From contig NZWR01000004.1 of assembly GCA_002698305.1 (NCBI GenBank), forward strand, positions 4,347 to 68,346: 64,000 nucleotides of DNA, written 5' to 3'. The first letter of the stretch is position 1; every line of letters begins with the position of its first letter. Origin of the DNA: Candidatus Campbellbacteria bacterium. GTDB lineage: Bacteria > Patescibacteriota > Minisyncoccia > Phycocordibacterales > UBA1006. This document shows positions 4,334 to 59,748 of the stretch, piece by piece. The notes under the pieces were generated by a model, which was not told where the DNA came from, did not search any database, and saw nothing but the letters and a program-made list of their open reading frames with translations. The position numbers were made by a program, and so were the translations under genes.

Positions 4334-4732
4334 TTATACATCTTTGCAGCTCAAAGCTTCTCGATATACTATTTTAGTTTGGCAGGTTACCCCTGCGGCG
4401 TCAGCGCAATAATAGTGACCTTTTGAATACTCACCACAAATAAGAATCTTGTTATATGCTGGAGGATTAATATTACATGCTACAGACTTGGCTTTGGCTC
4501 GTAATTCATTTGTTAAATCAATTGTCTCGGCCTCGGTGCAGGTATTCTGAAATTGACCATTTCTAATATTCATAAAAAGAATTTCAGCTTGGATCCGTTG
4601 AATACTACTTTTAACAGCACTTTCGTTGTAAGAGCGATACATACGTAGCGATGTTGGTAACAGCGCGGCAAATAACGCGGCACCAAGAATAAATATTAAA
4701 AAATACGTAGATCCAACCCTAAAATTATTCAT
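4334..4732 (-). CDS. Type IV pilin-like paralog with a degenerate prepilin N-terminus
   Basis: 132 aa. RIQAEILFMNIRNGQFQNTCTEAE and HYYCADAAGVTC..SC align by eye with pilA (38983-39384) [22 protein letters not shown] and [14 protein letters not shown]. The N-terminus is RVGSTYFLIF instead of RGFTLIEL. Confidence 0.55.
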   Translation of the reverse strand: MNNFRVGSTYFLIFILGAALFAALLPTSLRMYRSYNESAVKSSIQRIQAEILFMNIRNGQFQNTCTEAETIDLTNELRAKAKSVACNINPPAYNKILICGEYSKGHYYCADAAGVTCQTKIVYREALSCKDV

Positions 4733-4823
4733 ACTTAAAATTATATCACTAATTTCTTAGTCACGAGTAGTCAAAATTAAATCCTATGCTATACTCTTTT
4801 TTGTTAATTTAATTAACAAATAT

Positions 4824-11381: not shown

Positions 11382-11453
11382 GGCGTGGTGGCGAAGTGGT
11401 AACGCTGCGGTCTGCAAAACCGCCATGCGCGGGTTCGAATCCCGCCCACGCCT
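11382..11453 (+). tRNA. tRNA-Cys (anticodon GCA)
   Basis: Acceptor GGCGTGG/CCACGCC, loop CTGCAAA, discriminator U73 (the Cys identity element). Confidence 0.9.
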
Positions 11454-11570
11454 CATATAAAAACCTTTTTAAGGTTTTTCCTTTATCTTTAAATGGGAAT
11501 GTTTCAAGGCTCAAAATCTAAACTTTTTTATATAAATTTTCTTTTTGGAAATCTATCGATGAGATACTTG

Positions 11571-11659
11571 TGGTGCCGAGAGCGGGGGTCGAACCCGCAC
11601 GCCAATAATTAGCAAGGGATTTTAAGTCCCTCGTGTCTACCAATTCCACCATCTCGGCA
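11571..11659 (-). tRNA. tRNA-Leu (anticodon TAA), CCA encoded
   Basis: The reverse complement folds with acceptor GCCGAGA/TCTCGGC, loop CTTAAAA, a long variable arm and a terminal ACCA. Confidence 0.9.
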
Positions 11660-30357: not shown

Positions 30358-30382
30358 AAATCTCGAGATGAGATTTTAAGTG

Positions 30383-30456
30383 TGTCGAGGGTGGGAATTG
30401 AACCCACGACCTTAGGTTTATGAGTCCTACGCTCTAACCAACTGAGCTACCCCGAC
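30383..30456 (-). tRNA. tRNA with anticodon CAT, elongator type (Met or Ile2)
   Basis: Acceptor GTCGGGG/CCTCGAC with a paired 1:72, so not an initiator. Loop CTCATAA. Confidence 0.85.
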
Positions 30457-30620: not shown

Positions 30621-30802
30621 GCAACATAGTAAAACATACCTTACATGTACTCCTAGAGTGCAGAAAAAAATAAAACTGAAAGCTTTGCTTTCAGTTTTAT
30701 TTTATATAAAGACAAGTATCCTTCATAAAATTTTGACATATACATTACCCAAATGAAATAAAAACAAAAATCTGAGGGAGAACTTCAGATTTCTGTTAAA
30801 TG

Positions 30803-30873
30803 TTGCGGGGGCTCGATTCGAACGAGCGTCTTCAGGTTATGAGCCTGATGAGATACCATTACTCCACCCCGCG
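30803..30873 (-). tRNA. Initiator tRNA-fMet (anticodon CAT)
   Basis: Acceptor CGCGGGG/CCCCGCA gives the C1:A72 mismatch characteristic of bacterial initiators. Loop CTCATAA. Confidence 0.8.
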
Positions 30874-55889: not shown

Positions 55890-56942
55890 TTAAGGTGTAG
55901 TAACTGATTCTAAAGAATCTTCCACAATTAAATCAGATTCATCGGCTTCGCGCTTTGCTTCTTCTCGAGTATCGACAATTTCATCTGTTTCATCGACAAT
56001 TTCACCTACCAATTGCTCAAGCACGTCTTCAAGTGTTACCAAACCACTCGTTCCCTCAAATTCATCTTTCACAATGGCGATATGTTCACGTCTTTTGAGA
56101 AATAGCTGCAACAAATCATCCACGCGCATATTTTCACCAACATAGAGTACGTCATGCATAAAAGATTTAATGGTTCGATTATCTTCATCTTTTGCTAAAG
56201 CAATCAATAAATCTCGGCGATAACACAACCCTAAAATATCATCATAATCTTCTCCATACACAGGAAGCCGTGAATTTGTTAATTCAAAAATCTCGTCACG
56301 AGCATCGGTAAGCGTTGCGTCTACCTGGAATCCAACCATCATCCTACGAGGGGTCATAATGTCACGTGCCGTTATATCATTCAACGTGAAAACTCTTTGA
56401 ATAAGATCACGCTCATCTTCTTCGATACTTCCCTCAAGGTGCCCAAGTTCAGATAACATATGTAACTCCTCTTCTGATACTACTTTTCTAATAACACTGA
56501 ATCGTTTGGTTAATTGTTCAAGTAGCCATACCAAGGGTGAAAATATTTTAATAGCTACAGTAAGAGGTCTCGACACAAGGAGCCCTATTTTTTCCGAATT
56601 ATTTTCACCAATTGTTTTTGGCAAAATTTCACCAAAAATAATAATGAAGAAAGTAAGCAGTGCAGAAACAATACCAATCATTGCATCACCTAAGATATTG
56701 GTTGCAACTACCCCAACAAAAATAGAACCAACAATATTTACAATATTATTAGCAATAACAATTACAATAATAGCTTTTTGTGGATTTTCTTTTATGTCAG
56801 CGAGTGCTGCTGCTCCTGTTTTATTTTGCTCTTTTAAAAGAAGAACTCGTGAATGCGGTACCGAGAAAAGTGCCGCCTCAATTCCTGAAAATAGTCCTGA
56901 ACCGATAACAACTGCCAGTGCAAGTAAAATAAGTGTAGTCAT
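55890..56942 (-). CDS. CNNM/hemolysin-family transporter (DUF21 + CBS pair)
   Basis: 350 aa. N-terminal 4-TM DUF21 domain followed by two CBS repeats. No CorC_HlyC tail. Confidence 0.75.
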   Translation of the reverse strand: MTTLILLALAVVIGSGLFSGIEAALFSVPHSRVLLLKEQNKTGAAALADIKENPQKAIIVIVIANNIVNIVGSIFVGVVATNILGDAMIGIVSALLTFFIIIFGEILPKTIGENNSEKIGLLVSRPLTVAIKIFSPLVWLLEQLTKRFSVIRKVVSEEELHMLSELGHLEGSIEEDERDLIQRVFTLNDITARDIMTPRRMMVGFQVDATLTDARDEIFELTNSRLPVYGEDYDDILGLCYRRDLLIALAKDEDNRTIKSFMHDVLYVGENMRVDDLLQLFLKRREHIAIVKDEFEGTSGLVTLEDVLEQLVGEIVDETDEIVDTREEAKREADESDLIVEDSLESVTTP

Positions 56943-57219: not shown

Positions 57220-57410
57220 TGTATTTTAGAAATTATTTCGAATAAACTTCAAACACCAGGTAAAACGAAATACTTCTTTCTACAAACTATTTGATACCTT
57301 GTATACTACGTCAAGGCTGTTCTAAGTCAAGGAACATCTGGGTAAAAACAGCACATTGAAAAAATCTTTAAGTCCGCTATTCTATATACGAGCACAACCA
57401 TGTGCCATCA

Positions 57411-57484
57411 TGCGCCTATAGCTCAATTGGCTAGAGCGCCGAGCTTATTCCTCGGATGTTGGGGGTTCGAGTCCCTCTGGGCGT
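57411..57484 (+). tRNA. tRNA with anticodon TAT (nominally Ile) and a non-canonical anticodon loop
   Basis: Acceptor GCGCCTA/TGGGCGT (G1:U72 wobble), perfect stem CCGAG/CTCGG, loop CTTATTC (U37, C38), T-arm GGGGG-TTCGAGT-CCCTC. Confidence 0.6.
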
Positions 57485-57551
57485 ACTAAAAATTTTAGAA
57501 CATAACGCGTTGCGTTATGTTCTTTAATTTTCTACGCCCAGAGGGACTCGA
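57465..57551. repeat. 87-nt near-perfect palindrome built on the 3' end of the tRNA(UAU)
   Basis: The 20-nt ttcgagtccctctgggcgta (57465-57484) recurs as a perfect inverted copy at 57532-57551. The centre is a 12-bp hairpin at 57496-57522. Confidence 0.9.
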
Positions 57552-57804
57552 AAAGAATGAAGCGGTATACAAGACGAGCGAAAGCGAGTGCTTGTCGCGA
57601 ACGCCCAGCCTAGGACGATGAGTGCTAAGACGAATCTTTGCACCACAGGAGTATTTCTAAAAATATATTCACTATGTTCATTATTTTTATGTCATTCTAG
57701 TCGTGAGCCATCGTGGTAGGTGAGTCTTCAAAAATAGAGCTTTCGCGGAAAAACACGTATGTGTTTTATCTGTGACCGAGTCCTTATTTATGCAAAAAAA
57801 AGAC

Positions 57805-59748
57805 CTACGCGGTCTTTTCTTCTTTTATTTTTGGTAATTCTTTTAGAGCTATACCATGCTTGGTCAATATTTCGTTATATTCTTTTTGTTCGAGTGTTTC
57901 TACTTTGATTAACGTTTCTGCAATCTCTACAAATGCATCATGGTATTCATTCAACACTTCTCGAGCTCGATTGAGACCTCTTTGAATAATCTTTGAAACT
58001 TCTGCATCAATCGTTTCAAGCATCTTTTCGCTACGATGATTACCTTCTACGCGATTACCAAACATTGTTTGTGCTGGTTTTCCGTCAACAACGATTGGAC
58101 CTATTTCAGATAACATTCCAAATTTCATCACCATATCACGAGCCGTTGCTGATACCACCTTCAAATCATTAGATGGACCTGTTGAGATATCACCATAGAT
58201 TTTTTCTTCTGCCGCGTATCCACCAAGCCCCATAGCAATATCATCCTCATAGGCTGATTTTGTTGGGAGTTTACGCTCATCAAGCGGCAGCTTCATGGTA
58301 AACCCTCCTGCTTTTGCTCGTGGAATAATAGTTACTTTGTGCACCGGATCAGCATCAGGTAATACCGATGCAACAATGGCGTGCCCTGCTTCGTGATAGG
58401 CTGTTTTCTTCTTCTCTTTTTCTCCTGCAAGGTGTGACTGGCGTTTTGGACCAATCATTACTTTTTCAAGCGCTTCAAGAAGGTCATCTTGATTAATAGT
58501 TTTTCTATCATGCAGTGCTGCAATAATTGCTCCTTCATTCATTAATGACTCTAGGTCAGCTCCAGAAAATCCAGCGGTTCGTTCAGCAATCGTTGTTAAA
58601 TTAACTGCATCAGCCAAAGGTTTTTTAGCTGCATGGATCTCTAGAATCTTTTTTCTATCGCGCCGGTCTGGTAAATCAAGCGTTACCCTTCGGTCAAAGC
58701 GACCAGGGCGCAGCAGTGCTGGATCAAGAACATCAGACCGATTGGTTGCTGCCATAACGATTAATTTTTCATTAGCCTCAAATCCATCCATTTCAACAAG
58801 GATTTGATTCAAGGTCTGTTCACGTTCATCGTTTCCCCCTCCGATTCCAACACCACGTGATCGTCCTACCGCATCAATTTCGTCAATAAAGATAATGGCT
58901 GGCGACATTTTTTTTGCCATCTTGAATAAATCACGCACACGTGATGCACCAACCCCAACAAACATTTCGACAAAATCTGAACCAGATAGGTAGAAAAATG
59001 GGACTTTTGCTTCACCAGCAACTGCTCGGGCCAGCATAGTCTTTCCTGTTCCTGGTCGCCCTGTCATTAATACTCCTTTTGGAATTTTTGCCCCCATTGA
59101 AATAAATTTCTTTGGGTTTTTCAAAAACTCAACCATTTCTTCGAGCTCTTTTTTGGCTTCTCTATTTCCAGCAACGTCCTTAAATGTAACGCGTTTTGCC
59201 TTGTTGTTTGGTAAAATGACGCGGGCTTTTGAGTTTCCAAAATTCATGGCCTTTCCATTCGTACCTTTTACCTGGCGCATAAAGAACCAAATAATAAAGA
59301 TAAGTCCTGCAAGTGGTAGCAAAAATGGAGCAAGTTGACCAAACCAATATCCAAACCCTGACGGCTCATCAATCTCAATATCTACTGTCTGCAAAGCCTC
59401 ATTGGTAACCCCATAGTTCACCAAAGACTCTGACAAAGCTGTGCCTACTTCTTTTTTAGATTCTTTAATAATTGGCTCTTGCCCTTCTTCTGCTGTTAAG
59501 GTAATTTCAAGATTTTCTCCTTTGACAAGTATTTTTTCAACCTGCCCTTCTGCAACAAGCATTGCTGTTTCAGAAATACTGATATTTATATCGTCATCTT
59601 GCGGTGCAAATGAATCAATCAATAAACTAAAAGCGAAAAAAATAATCAGACCCAACAATATCTGCATCGACAGATTTGGTCGTTGGTTTTTTCCTTTGGA
59701 TTTCTTCTTTTTTTTATTATTTCCAATTGGTTGTAATGGTAGTTTCAT
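57805..59748 (-). CDS. ftsH: ATP-dependent zinc metalloprotease FtsH
   Basis: Two N-terminal TM helices, AAA module [17 protein letters not shown] and zinc site HEAGHAI. The start is at ATG 59748, 7 nt after a TATAAT box. The track ORF extends to 59787. Confidence 0.95.

Follow-up and report, generated by a model that had tools for sequence, protein, structure and literature searches.

The tRNA gene at positions 57412-57485 (+) of the 64,000-nucleotide (nt) stretch analysed here (contig NZWR01000004.1 of a marine, ultra-small 'Candidatus Campbellbacteria' bacterium, hereafter the window) carries the anticodon UAU and represents a clade-wide, selected variant of this rare bacterial tRNA, with U at position 37 and a G1-U72 pair in the acceptor stem, a finding that is both solid and unusual. 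Three points go beyond the original prediction that had been made from the letters of the window: the U37 is a derived state throughout the clade, the core of the hairpin behind the gene is a predicted bidirectional terminator, and the inverted copy of the tRNA 3′ end that surrounds this core lies within a larger conserved cassette. Taken together, it is probable that the gene encodes a functional, AUA-reading tRNA-Ile(UAU) with derived U37 and G1-U72, followed by a bidirectional terminator and a relic inverted copy in a cassette that flips its orientation.

The gene has the features by which membership in the tRNA family was judged, namely a cloverleaf with U8, A14, G18G19, U33, T54-Psi55-C56 and A58 and a score above the gathering threshold. 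The Rfam model RF00005, whose gathering score is 29, matches 57412-57485 with 61.3 bits, which places the gene eighth among the 12 tRNAs of the window, and ARAGORN calls a tRNA-Ile(tat) at 57412-57486, so that automated folding arrives at the same anticodon as the original prediction. All features described there do exist, although each coordinate (57411, 57465-57484, 57532-57551 and 57600-57607) was one nucleotide too low. The tRNA is of the isoleucine type, with A73 and no encoded CCA; its acceptor stem GCGCCUA/UGGGCGU contains the wobble pairs G1-U72 and U6-G67, and the other arms read GCUC-AAUUGGCUA-GAGC (D-arm), CCGAG-CUUAUUC-CUCGG (anticodon arm) and GGGGG-UUCGAGU-CCCUC (T-arm), with canonical elbow signatures G18G19, T54-Psi55-C56 and A58. 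Upstream, a consensus scan predicts a sigma-70-like promoter (TTGAAA-16-TATTCT, 57356-57383, +), and the sequence TTGAAWAA...TATTCT or TATCCT precedes the tRNA in relatives too, in either orientation of the cassette.

The unusual part is the anticodon loop CUUAUUC (57444-57450), in which U34, A35 and U36 (57446-57448) are followed by U37 (57449) and C38 (57450). Decoding tRNAs are regarded as having, without exception, a purine at position 37, in most cases a hypermodified one, and with U at 57449 the gene lacks this mark of a canonical elongator; N6-threonylcarbamoyladenosine (t6A) cannot be made at such a position. A or G is found at position 37 in all 18 other distinct tRNAs examined in the window and in the related loci, and the previously noticed U37, C38 and G1-U72 are indeed present and, among the tRNAs examined, confined to tRNA(UAU).

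The gene is real and conserved. Loci of relatives, coded L001-L048 with the window as the reference, were gathered from genomes and metagenomes through the neighbouring proteins and a DNA pattern of the D-arm and anticodon, and ARAGORN was run on the retrieved loci. About 16 related locus types share an identical CTTATTC loop (the window, L001, L002/3, L009/19/23, L028, L010, L013, L015, L017, L018, L020, L021, L022/44, L026, L043 and L047); their CNNM proteins are 74-85% and FtsH proteins 72-89% identical to those of the window. In nine distinct variants the cloverleaf is 100% paired in all four stems, with 10 of the 21 pairs changed on both sides; the observed score was reached by none of 500 shuffles, and no slid register came close. 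The anticodon stem occurs as CCGAG/CUCGG, CUGAG/CUCAG and UCGAG/CUCGA (in DNA, GCCGAG/CTCGG, GCTGAG/CTCAG and ATCGAG/CTCGA), the T-stem as GGGGG/CCCUC and CCAGG/CCUGG, and pair 6-67 as U-G or C-G. Since the pairing has been kept across lineages, as have the promoter-like and terminator signals that flank the tRNA in all loci compared, the gene is under purifying selection and is not a pseudogene. The unusual U37 and C38, the two acceptor-stem wobbles and the Rfam rank within the window could still be taken for signs of a decaying pseudogene beside a chance or artefactual palindrome. This is highly improbable, however, as compensatory changes maintain the stems, the 586-nt ftsH-csp intergenic region is 100% identical across 10 independent assemblies of the same species, which excludes an assembly artefact, and the 20/20 inverted match described below recurs in other lineages. 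Pseudogene status, named beforehand as the outcome that refutes the original prediction, is thus rejected by conservation and compensatory change.

The U37 is specific to the clade, as A37 is found in six more distant locus types. These A37 genes for tRNA-Ile(UAU) are linked to ftsH at the same position in L014/L016 (Spechtbacteria), L024, L008/L029, L046 and L048, where FtsH is 53-76% identical; their loop reads CTTATAC (A37, C38), and their 1-72 pair is a Watson-Crick one (G/C1-C/G72). From these states in the distant relatives it follows that U37 and G1-U72 are both derived, U37 having replaced A37 clade-wide and G1-U72 having replaced G1-C72.

The codon matching the anticodon UAU is in regular use. 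In 63 open reading frames (ORFs) of the window ATA amounts to 16.6 per 1000 codons and 19% of the isoleucine codons, and when compared with relatives the window ATA codons face an isoleucine codon in 217 of 332 cases and ATG (Met) in 15 of 332, which together identify AUA as a common isoleucine codon. A UAU anticodon with A73 in a genome where AUA means isoleucine, as found here, is a feature of the tRNA-Ile2(UAU) that decodes AUA in bacteria without tilS, and the gene is probably the AUA reader of the clade. We infer that charging with isoleucine and decoding of AUA without t6A are most likely, and the loss of the stacking purine or t6A together with C32-C38 may weaken binding enough that the U-G wobble on AUG is rejected. 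Two CAU tRNAs are present in the window, an initiator at 30802-30873 (C1xA72) and an elongator-type tRNA at 30382-30456 (-), whose anticodon stem has an A31-A39 mismatch at its lower end and which could be either a Met or a lysidine-type Ile2 tRNA. An ORF with the PP-loop motif SGGxDS, a candidate for tilS, was found neither in the 64-kb window nor in any fetched locus, whole genomes not having been scanned, and a literature search found nothing on AUA decoding or on lysidine in Patescibacteria.

The elongator-type CAU tRNA would also be compatible with a different role of tRNA(UAU), namely that of a specialised, non-proteinogenic tRNA excluded from bulk translation by U37 and the weak G1-U72 pair and serving as an amino acid donor or regulator, while AUA would be read by a lysidine-containing tRNA-Ile2(CAU) encoded elsewhere. 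The sole pyrimidine-37 precedent that was found is likewise a non-proteinogenic tRNA-Gly(UCC) (PMC6103715), and two derived changes, U37 and G1-U72, occur together in the clade. On the other hand, G18G19, T54-Psi55-C56 and A58 are canonical, unlike in the cell-wall tRNAs, and the gene sits at the ancestral ftsH-linked position of tRNA-Ile(UAU), where relatives have ordinary A37 versions. Furthermore, no Fem-type, MprF-type or similar transferase adjoins the tRNA in any locus examined, the anticodon loop is invariant across about 16 lineages, and AUA is heavily used. Such a specialised function appears unlikely, yet the tRNA-Gly precedent and the co-derived G1-U72 are reasons to keep it under consideration.

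The order of genes around the tRNA is recG (+), an HD-domain gene (-), CNNM (-), csp (-), tRNA (+), ftsH (-), smpB (+) and the transfer-messenger RNA (tmRNA) gene (+), so that tRNA(UAU) is divergent from csp and convergent with ftsH. Between the convergent genes lies a core hairpin of 12 bp with the loop GTT (57497-57523), and a terminator scan matches it on both strands (12 bp, 5 GC pairs; tails TTAATTTTCT on the + and AAAATTTTTA on the - strand). A hairpin with a T-run on each strand between tRNA (+) and ftsH (-) is the arrangement of a bidirectional intrinsic terminator, and the core is predicted to terminate transcription in both directions. In comparison with L015, the core has five substitutions per arm, 5/5 of them fully compensated Watson-Crick double changes, and is 44% identical. 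Such strict Watson-Crick compensation is consistent with a hairpin required to fold from each strand, or with correction of one arm by the other in the DNA.

The core is enclosed by an inverted copy of the tRNA 3′ end, as the original prediction had stated. The 20-mer TTCGAGTCCCTCTGGGCGTA from the T-loop to the discriminator base (tRNA nt 54-73, 57466-57485, +) forms the left outer arm of the palindrome, and its exact reverse complement at 57533-57552 (-) forms the right one. A repeat finder gives 25-nt arms (57466-57490 and 57528-57552, 92%) around an inner hairpin (57489-57508 and 57512-57531), and a perfect inverted 20-mer within 70 nt far exceeds the expectation by chance. Nothing comparable is seen at the other 11 tRNAs or the tmRNA of the window, which excludes the palindrome as a general trait of the tRNA terminators of this genome. 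The origin of the copy from a decayed convergent tRNA on the minus strand was rejected, as there is no tRNA-like match past the 20-mer and no similarity to the tRNA body after CTCGAA. No known RNA family was recognised in 57486-57805 either, where Rfam at E <= 10 gave nothing but the tRNA antisense and long-hairpin noise from models of miRNA precursors, and in ten related loci Rfam matched only tRNA and tmRNA.

The fragment recurs in relatives and co-varies with the tRNA. Inverted copies are found in five other lineages (L015, L002/L003, L017, L047 and L048), in both orientations of the cassette, and always match the local tRNA; in L015, 19 of the 20 positions are kept. In L002/L003 and L017 the tRNA is followed by a different hairpin and by GGTACGCCCAGAG, and a small compensated hairpin insertion separates the latter from GGGAYTCGAA, which amounts to a copy from T54 to the 3′ end split between C62 and C63. 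In L047, which has the CCAGG/CCTGG variant of the T-stem, the hairpin is followed by CACCAGGACTCGAA, matching its own T-stem, and in the distant A37 lineage L048 the terminator palindrome extends 6 nt into its own, different tRNA 3′ end (ACGGAC/GTCCGT).

The consequences of the copy for the transcript depend on where transcription stops. A precursor ending in the T-run is predicted to fold as a cloverleaf and a separate hairpin, whereas the read-through RNA is predicted to form a 38-bp stem (-77.5 kcal/mol, z = -10) that engulfs the 3′ half of the T-arm and the 3′ strand of the acceptor stem. The earlier suggestion that read-through could sequester the tRNA 3′ end agrees with the predicted folding, but as the copy lies beyond the T-run, this would apply to read-through RNA only. 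The extended stem might nevertheless be a functional RNA element, in which the read-through pairing either flags defective precursors for degradation of the RNase III type or adjusts how much mature tRNA is produced. Besides the stability of the predicted fold, this is favoured by the potential pairing between the tRNA 3′ end and its downstream complement being kept in three tRNA sequence types (the window, L047 and L048) and by the lone substitution in the distal part of the L002 copy (GGATTCGAA), which retains a G-U pair on the tRNA-sense RNA. However, most transcripts are expected to lack a copy placed after the T-run of a good terminator, a plain terminator suffices in most lineages, including L001, L009, L010, L013, L018 and L022, and the core substitutions, being all strict Watson-Crick, are a better fit to a DNA-level or two-strand constraint than to one acting on a single RNA strand. 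An RNA-level function of the stem is therefore quite unlikely.

The palindrome belongs to a cassette that is rich in repeats of the tRNA 3′ end. Past the inverted copy, a conserved spacer starts with AAGAATGAAGCGGTATACAAGACGAGCGAAAGCGAGTGCTTGTCGC and a small hairpin ACAAGAC/GTGCTTGT (57553-57600, +), the first 48 nt being 77% identical to L015; motifs of the GAGCGAA type are also located downstream of tRNA-Ile(UAU) in L002, L024, L008 and L047. An 8-nt second inverted match to the acceptor 3′ strand, ACGCCCAG (57601-57608, -), is present as previously noted, but exceeds chance only weakly and is not conserved in L015, the closest homologous locus, and is possibly a decayed second copy or a chance match. 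Further downstream, comparison with L002 and L047 reveals a remnant of a direct copy of the tRNA 3′ end, CGCGGAAAAACACGTATGTGTTTTATCTGTGACCGAGTCC (57743-57783, +), with the T-loop sequence CGAGTCC at 57777-57783 after a small insertion. In L002 this element accompanies the cassette in its inverted position, and the sequences of the two loci agree at 90% over 40 nt. In L047, a spacer of about 120 nt that begins with AAGAGT separates the inverted copy from a full direct copy of its own tRNA 3′ end, GAC-CGAGTCCTGGTGGGCGTAC. The window follows the same order, with the inverted copy, a spacer starting with AAGAAT and GTGAC-CGAGTCC at 57772-57783, a sequence shared with L047, where it continues as CGAGTCCTGGTGGGCGTAC. 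Direct 3′-end copies lie 140-160 nt downstream also in L008 (GAGTCCTGGTGCGCGCAC, 160 nt) and L024 (a diverged copy of the T-arm and acceptor).

The spacer itself (57553-57772) shares recurring motifs with the matching spacers of the deeply diverged lineages L002, L015, L024, L008, L047 and L048, among them GAGCGAA(A)GCGA(A)G, GGNGATGAG, AGCCGGGGTCG and GTGAC-CGAGTCC. Part of it resembles a decayed tRNA 3′ half with a small T-loop insertion; it has no Rfam match, and its conservation is unexpected for non-coding DNA. An AT-rich segment of 33 nt within the spacer (57657-57689, CTAAAAATATATTCACTATGTTCATTATTTTTA), unique within the window, is 94% identical to L002:11756-11788, about 90 nt downstream of a tRNA-Ser(GCU).

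The cassette flips between close relatives. The ancestral arrangement, in which the tRNA comes after a co-directional ftsH, is found in L014, L024, L046, L047 and L048 and also in the U37 lineages L002, L022, L026, L028 and L021, whereas the tRNA is convergent with ftsH in the window, L001, L009, L010, L013, L015, L019 and L043. The window and L002 share the whole block of promoter, tRNA, hairpin, fragment and spacer, through GTGACCGAGTC, in opposite orientation. The notion of the original prediction that the palindrome may record an inverted duplication or recombination event is supported by the two orientations of the cassette and by the recurring 3′-end fragments, inverted or direct. Active inversion was considered as well and is contradicted by the 10 identical assemblies. 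An inversion signature in the HKST-UBA43 metagenome-assembled genome (MAG), consisting of A-X, A-Y and B-Y junctions, was not used, as the A-Y contig joins two CNNM paralogues via the 74-nt tRNA and may be chimeric.

In the reading that we consider probable, tRNA(UAU) would be functional and serve as the AUA-reading isoleucine tRNA of a marine Paceibacteria clade, whose MAGs bear the label 'Campbellbacteria' or 'Pacebacteria', and the inner hairpin would stop transcription both ways between the convergent tRNA and ftsH. The stem would gain 20 bp from the inverted T-loop-to-discriminator copy located just past the T-run. The cassette would consist of the promoter, the tRNA, the hairpin, the inverted 3′ fragment, a spacer of about 220 nt and the remnant of a direct 3′ fragment, and would be common to several lineages, in either orientation, between ftsH and csp. 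The inverted copy would be a recombination relic, or its arms the product of gene conversion, and what keeps it matched to the tRNA would be either selection for pairing or correction of one arm against the other inside the palindrome.

Several points speak against this reading. First, UAU makes three A-U pairs and would be expected to bind its codon weakly without a purine at position 37, at odds with the heavy use of AUA. Next, t6A37 is considered important for codons starting with A and for recognition by isoleucyl-tRNA synthetase (IleRS), whose identity elements in Escherichia coli are C4-G69, U12-A23, A73, A37 (t6A), A38 and C29-G41; the tRNA has C4-G69, U12-A23 and A73 and lacks t6A37, A38 and C29-G41. 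In addition, tilS and a tRNA-Ile2(CAU) may be encoded elsewhere in the genome, and tRNA(UAU) may not be the main AUA decoder. A neutral relic should moreover decay, yet 19-20 of the 20 nt are kept beside a hairpin core at 44% identity, and the retention of the fragment next to a diverged core points to active homogenisation or some function. Finally, the palindrome-bearing lineages are dispersed over the trees of CNNM and FtsH, which implies that the ancestral architecture was often lost or that the cassette spread laterally.

A more mobile history of the gene is suggested by relatives in which tRNA copies are nested. In L021 (1420-1675, -), L043 (2689-2967, -), L047 (4599-4860, +) and L048 (about 4420-4790, +), a complete tRNA-Ile(UAU) is nested in the anticodon loop of a split second copy that is cut directly after CTTAT. 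The inserts consist of 70-160 nt in addition to the inner tRNA, their left and right arms pair, with compensatory differences between the loci, and a 3-nt TAT duplication is found at the insert junctions in L021 and L048. The outer copy is intact in L048 and has one mutation in L043. In L021 it breaks off in the T-loop and differs in allele from the inner copy, the inner one being of the ATCGAG type and the outer one of the window type, which implies import from another lineage. The cut in the L021 outer copy, directly after TTCGAG, coincides with the start point of the inverted fragment in the window. The tRNA bodies at the ftsH-linked site also differ strongly between L046 and L047, whose FtsH proteins are 72-76% identical to that of the window. 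These observations suggest repeated replacement of the resident tRNA gene by incoming copies, which would account for the many fragments. A group I intron as the source of the nested inserts was rejected, since there is no consistent U/omega-G boundary and no Rfam match.

An explanation that builds on this holds that tRNA-Ile(UAU) is part of a small mobile element that takes the place of a resident copy by inserting, in one orientation or the other, into its anticodon loop or its T-loop; the inverted 3′ fragment would be a remnant of the displaced copy and maybe still a recombination site. The nested genes with paired insert arms, the TAT duplications, the foreign inner allele and the matching T-loop cut of L021, the divergent tRNA bodies at one site and the orientation flips all fit such an element, and in L020 a gene for a large serine recombinase ends 85 nt downstream of the tRNA. 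However, no recombinase is present in the window or in most loci, the 10 assemblies of the species have no polymorphism of orientation or sequence, and after an inverted insertion a 5′ half would be expected behind the new tRNA in place of the observed 3′ fragment. The comparison of L020 with L018 places the junction of the recombinase element beyond the tRNA terminator and not in the tRNA, which also rules out the tRNA as its attachment (att) site, and no viral contig carrying tRNA(UAU) was found, so that a phage-borne tRNA was rejected as well. We regard the mobile element as an unlikely explanation and retain the functional tRNA with a relic copy as the probable reading.

The recombinase itself (L020:6344-7648, -; also in L025 and L027) has 434 aa with Resolvase, Recombinase and Zn-ribbon domains, and ORFs without a Pfam match follow it; L026 retains the tRNA-downstream sequence of L020 without the recombinase gene and has the cassette in the opposite orientation. 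In L047 (4608-4660), two short inserted palindromes rich in GC, cctgcctgccggcaggcaggg and cttgtctgccggctgaggcag, interrupt the 5′ half of the outer copy around the nested tRNA and look like miniature mobile hairpin elements. The tRNA of L046 (4630-4740) is bracketed by perfect inverted repeats of 12-13 nt (TAGTATACATAG/CTATGTATACTA), and in L012 (830-1020) perfect 32-nt inverted repeats surround the promoter and tRNA, L012 being possibly an assembly chimera of two CNNM paralogues.

The window, with a GC content of 37-38%, is from a patescibacterial (CPR, candidate phyla radiation) genome. The CNNM/CBS protein of the window (55890-56942) has a 100% identical counterpart in a marine 'Candidatus Campbellbacteria' MAG, and its nearest relatives bear the labels Pacebacteria, Paceibacteria or Patescibacteria. 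Convergent tRNA pairs are present elsewhere in the genome, as tRNA-Cys (+) and tRNA-Leu(UAA) (-) converge at 11382-11658 of the window with 116 nt between them. In L002, the Rfam match to tmRNA (806-1347, -) is 542 nt long against a 374-nt model and is missed by ARAGORN, which indicates an apparent insertion of about 165 nt in the gene, and a GIY-YIG ORF (L002:1504-1767) adjoins it.

A clade with a U37 tRNA(UAU) in which AUA makes up a fifth of the isoleucine codons would be a natural test of the contribution of purine-37 and t6A. If the tRNA is the AUA reader, it would demonstrate the separation of AUA from AUG without lysidine and a co-adaptation of IleRS and the ribosome in reduced genomes, and a tRNA gene that is flipped, copied piecewise and nested in itself among relatives may reveal a new way of tRNA allele replacement. 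In a far-reaching and improbable version of events, the only decoder of AUA in the clade would be a UAU tRNA with neither a purine nor t6A at position 37, an unprecedented mode of AUA/AUG discrimination, and its allele would be carried by a small cassette that targets its own kind: by insertion into the anticodon loop or the T-loop, it would replace the resident tRNA-Ile(UAU) gene and leave behind nested split copies and 3′ fragments, including the palindrome of the window.

Among known systems, the tRNA-Ile(UAU) of Mycoplasma mobile, the one characterised bacterial case, has t6A37 and an unmodified U34 and works in an organism without tilS and with an adapted IleRS (Taniguchi et al. 2013, PMC3575796). 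The two tRNAs are alike as elongators with an encoded UAU anticodon and A73 from small AT-rich genomes in which AUA stands for isoleucine; in contrast, t6A is formed at A37 in M. mobile, whereas U37, C38 and G1-U72 are found here. The non-proteinogenic tRNA-Gly(UCC) of staphylococci, the donor for the cell-wall pentaglycine, has an unmodified U34, C37 and a reduced affinity for EF-Tu (PMC6103715) and thus shares U34 and a pyrimidine at position 37. It differs in having lost the elbow signatures, in the weak EF-Tu-binding pairs of its T-stem and in coexisting with proteinogenic isoacceptors, while the D- and T-loops are canonical here. The T-stem pairs of the present tRNA are G49-C65, G50-U64 and G51-C63 in the window type and C-G, C-G and A-U in the L001 type.

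The core hairpin resembles the bidirectional terminators between convergent genes in that a GC-containing hairpin is located between an A-tract and a T-tract, providing a stem and a U-run for each strand, but here the stem is extended by 20 bp outside the T-runs by the 3′ end of the upstream gene and its inverted copy. The att core in tRNA genes classically extends from the T-loop to the 3′ end. The duplicated segment from the T-loop to the discriminator is reminiscent of the att sites of integrative elements, with direct copies in the relatives L008 and L024; in contrast, the copy in the window is inverted and 47 nt away, and the repeats enclose either a hairpin or about 150-220 nt of spacer. 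The scar of an integrative element (attL/attR) was rejected, given the inverted copy, no recombinase, integrase or island in the window, direct repeats in A37 relatives only and a serine recombinase in L020 only. Finally, the correction or extension of quasipalindromes by intramolecular template switching would explain the perfect arms, the compensated core and the copy that tracks the tRNA arm, although the same T54 boundary in several lineages favours one old event with subsequent maintenance over repeated extension.

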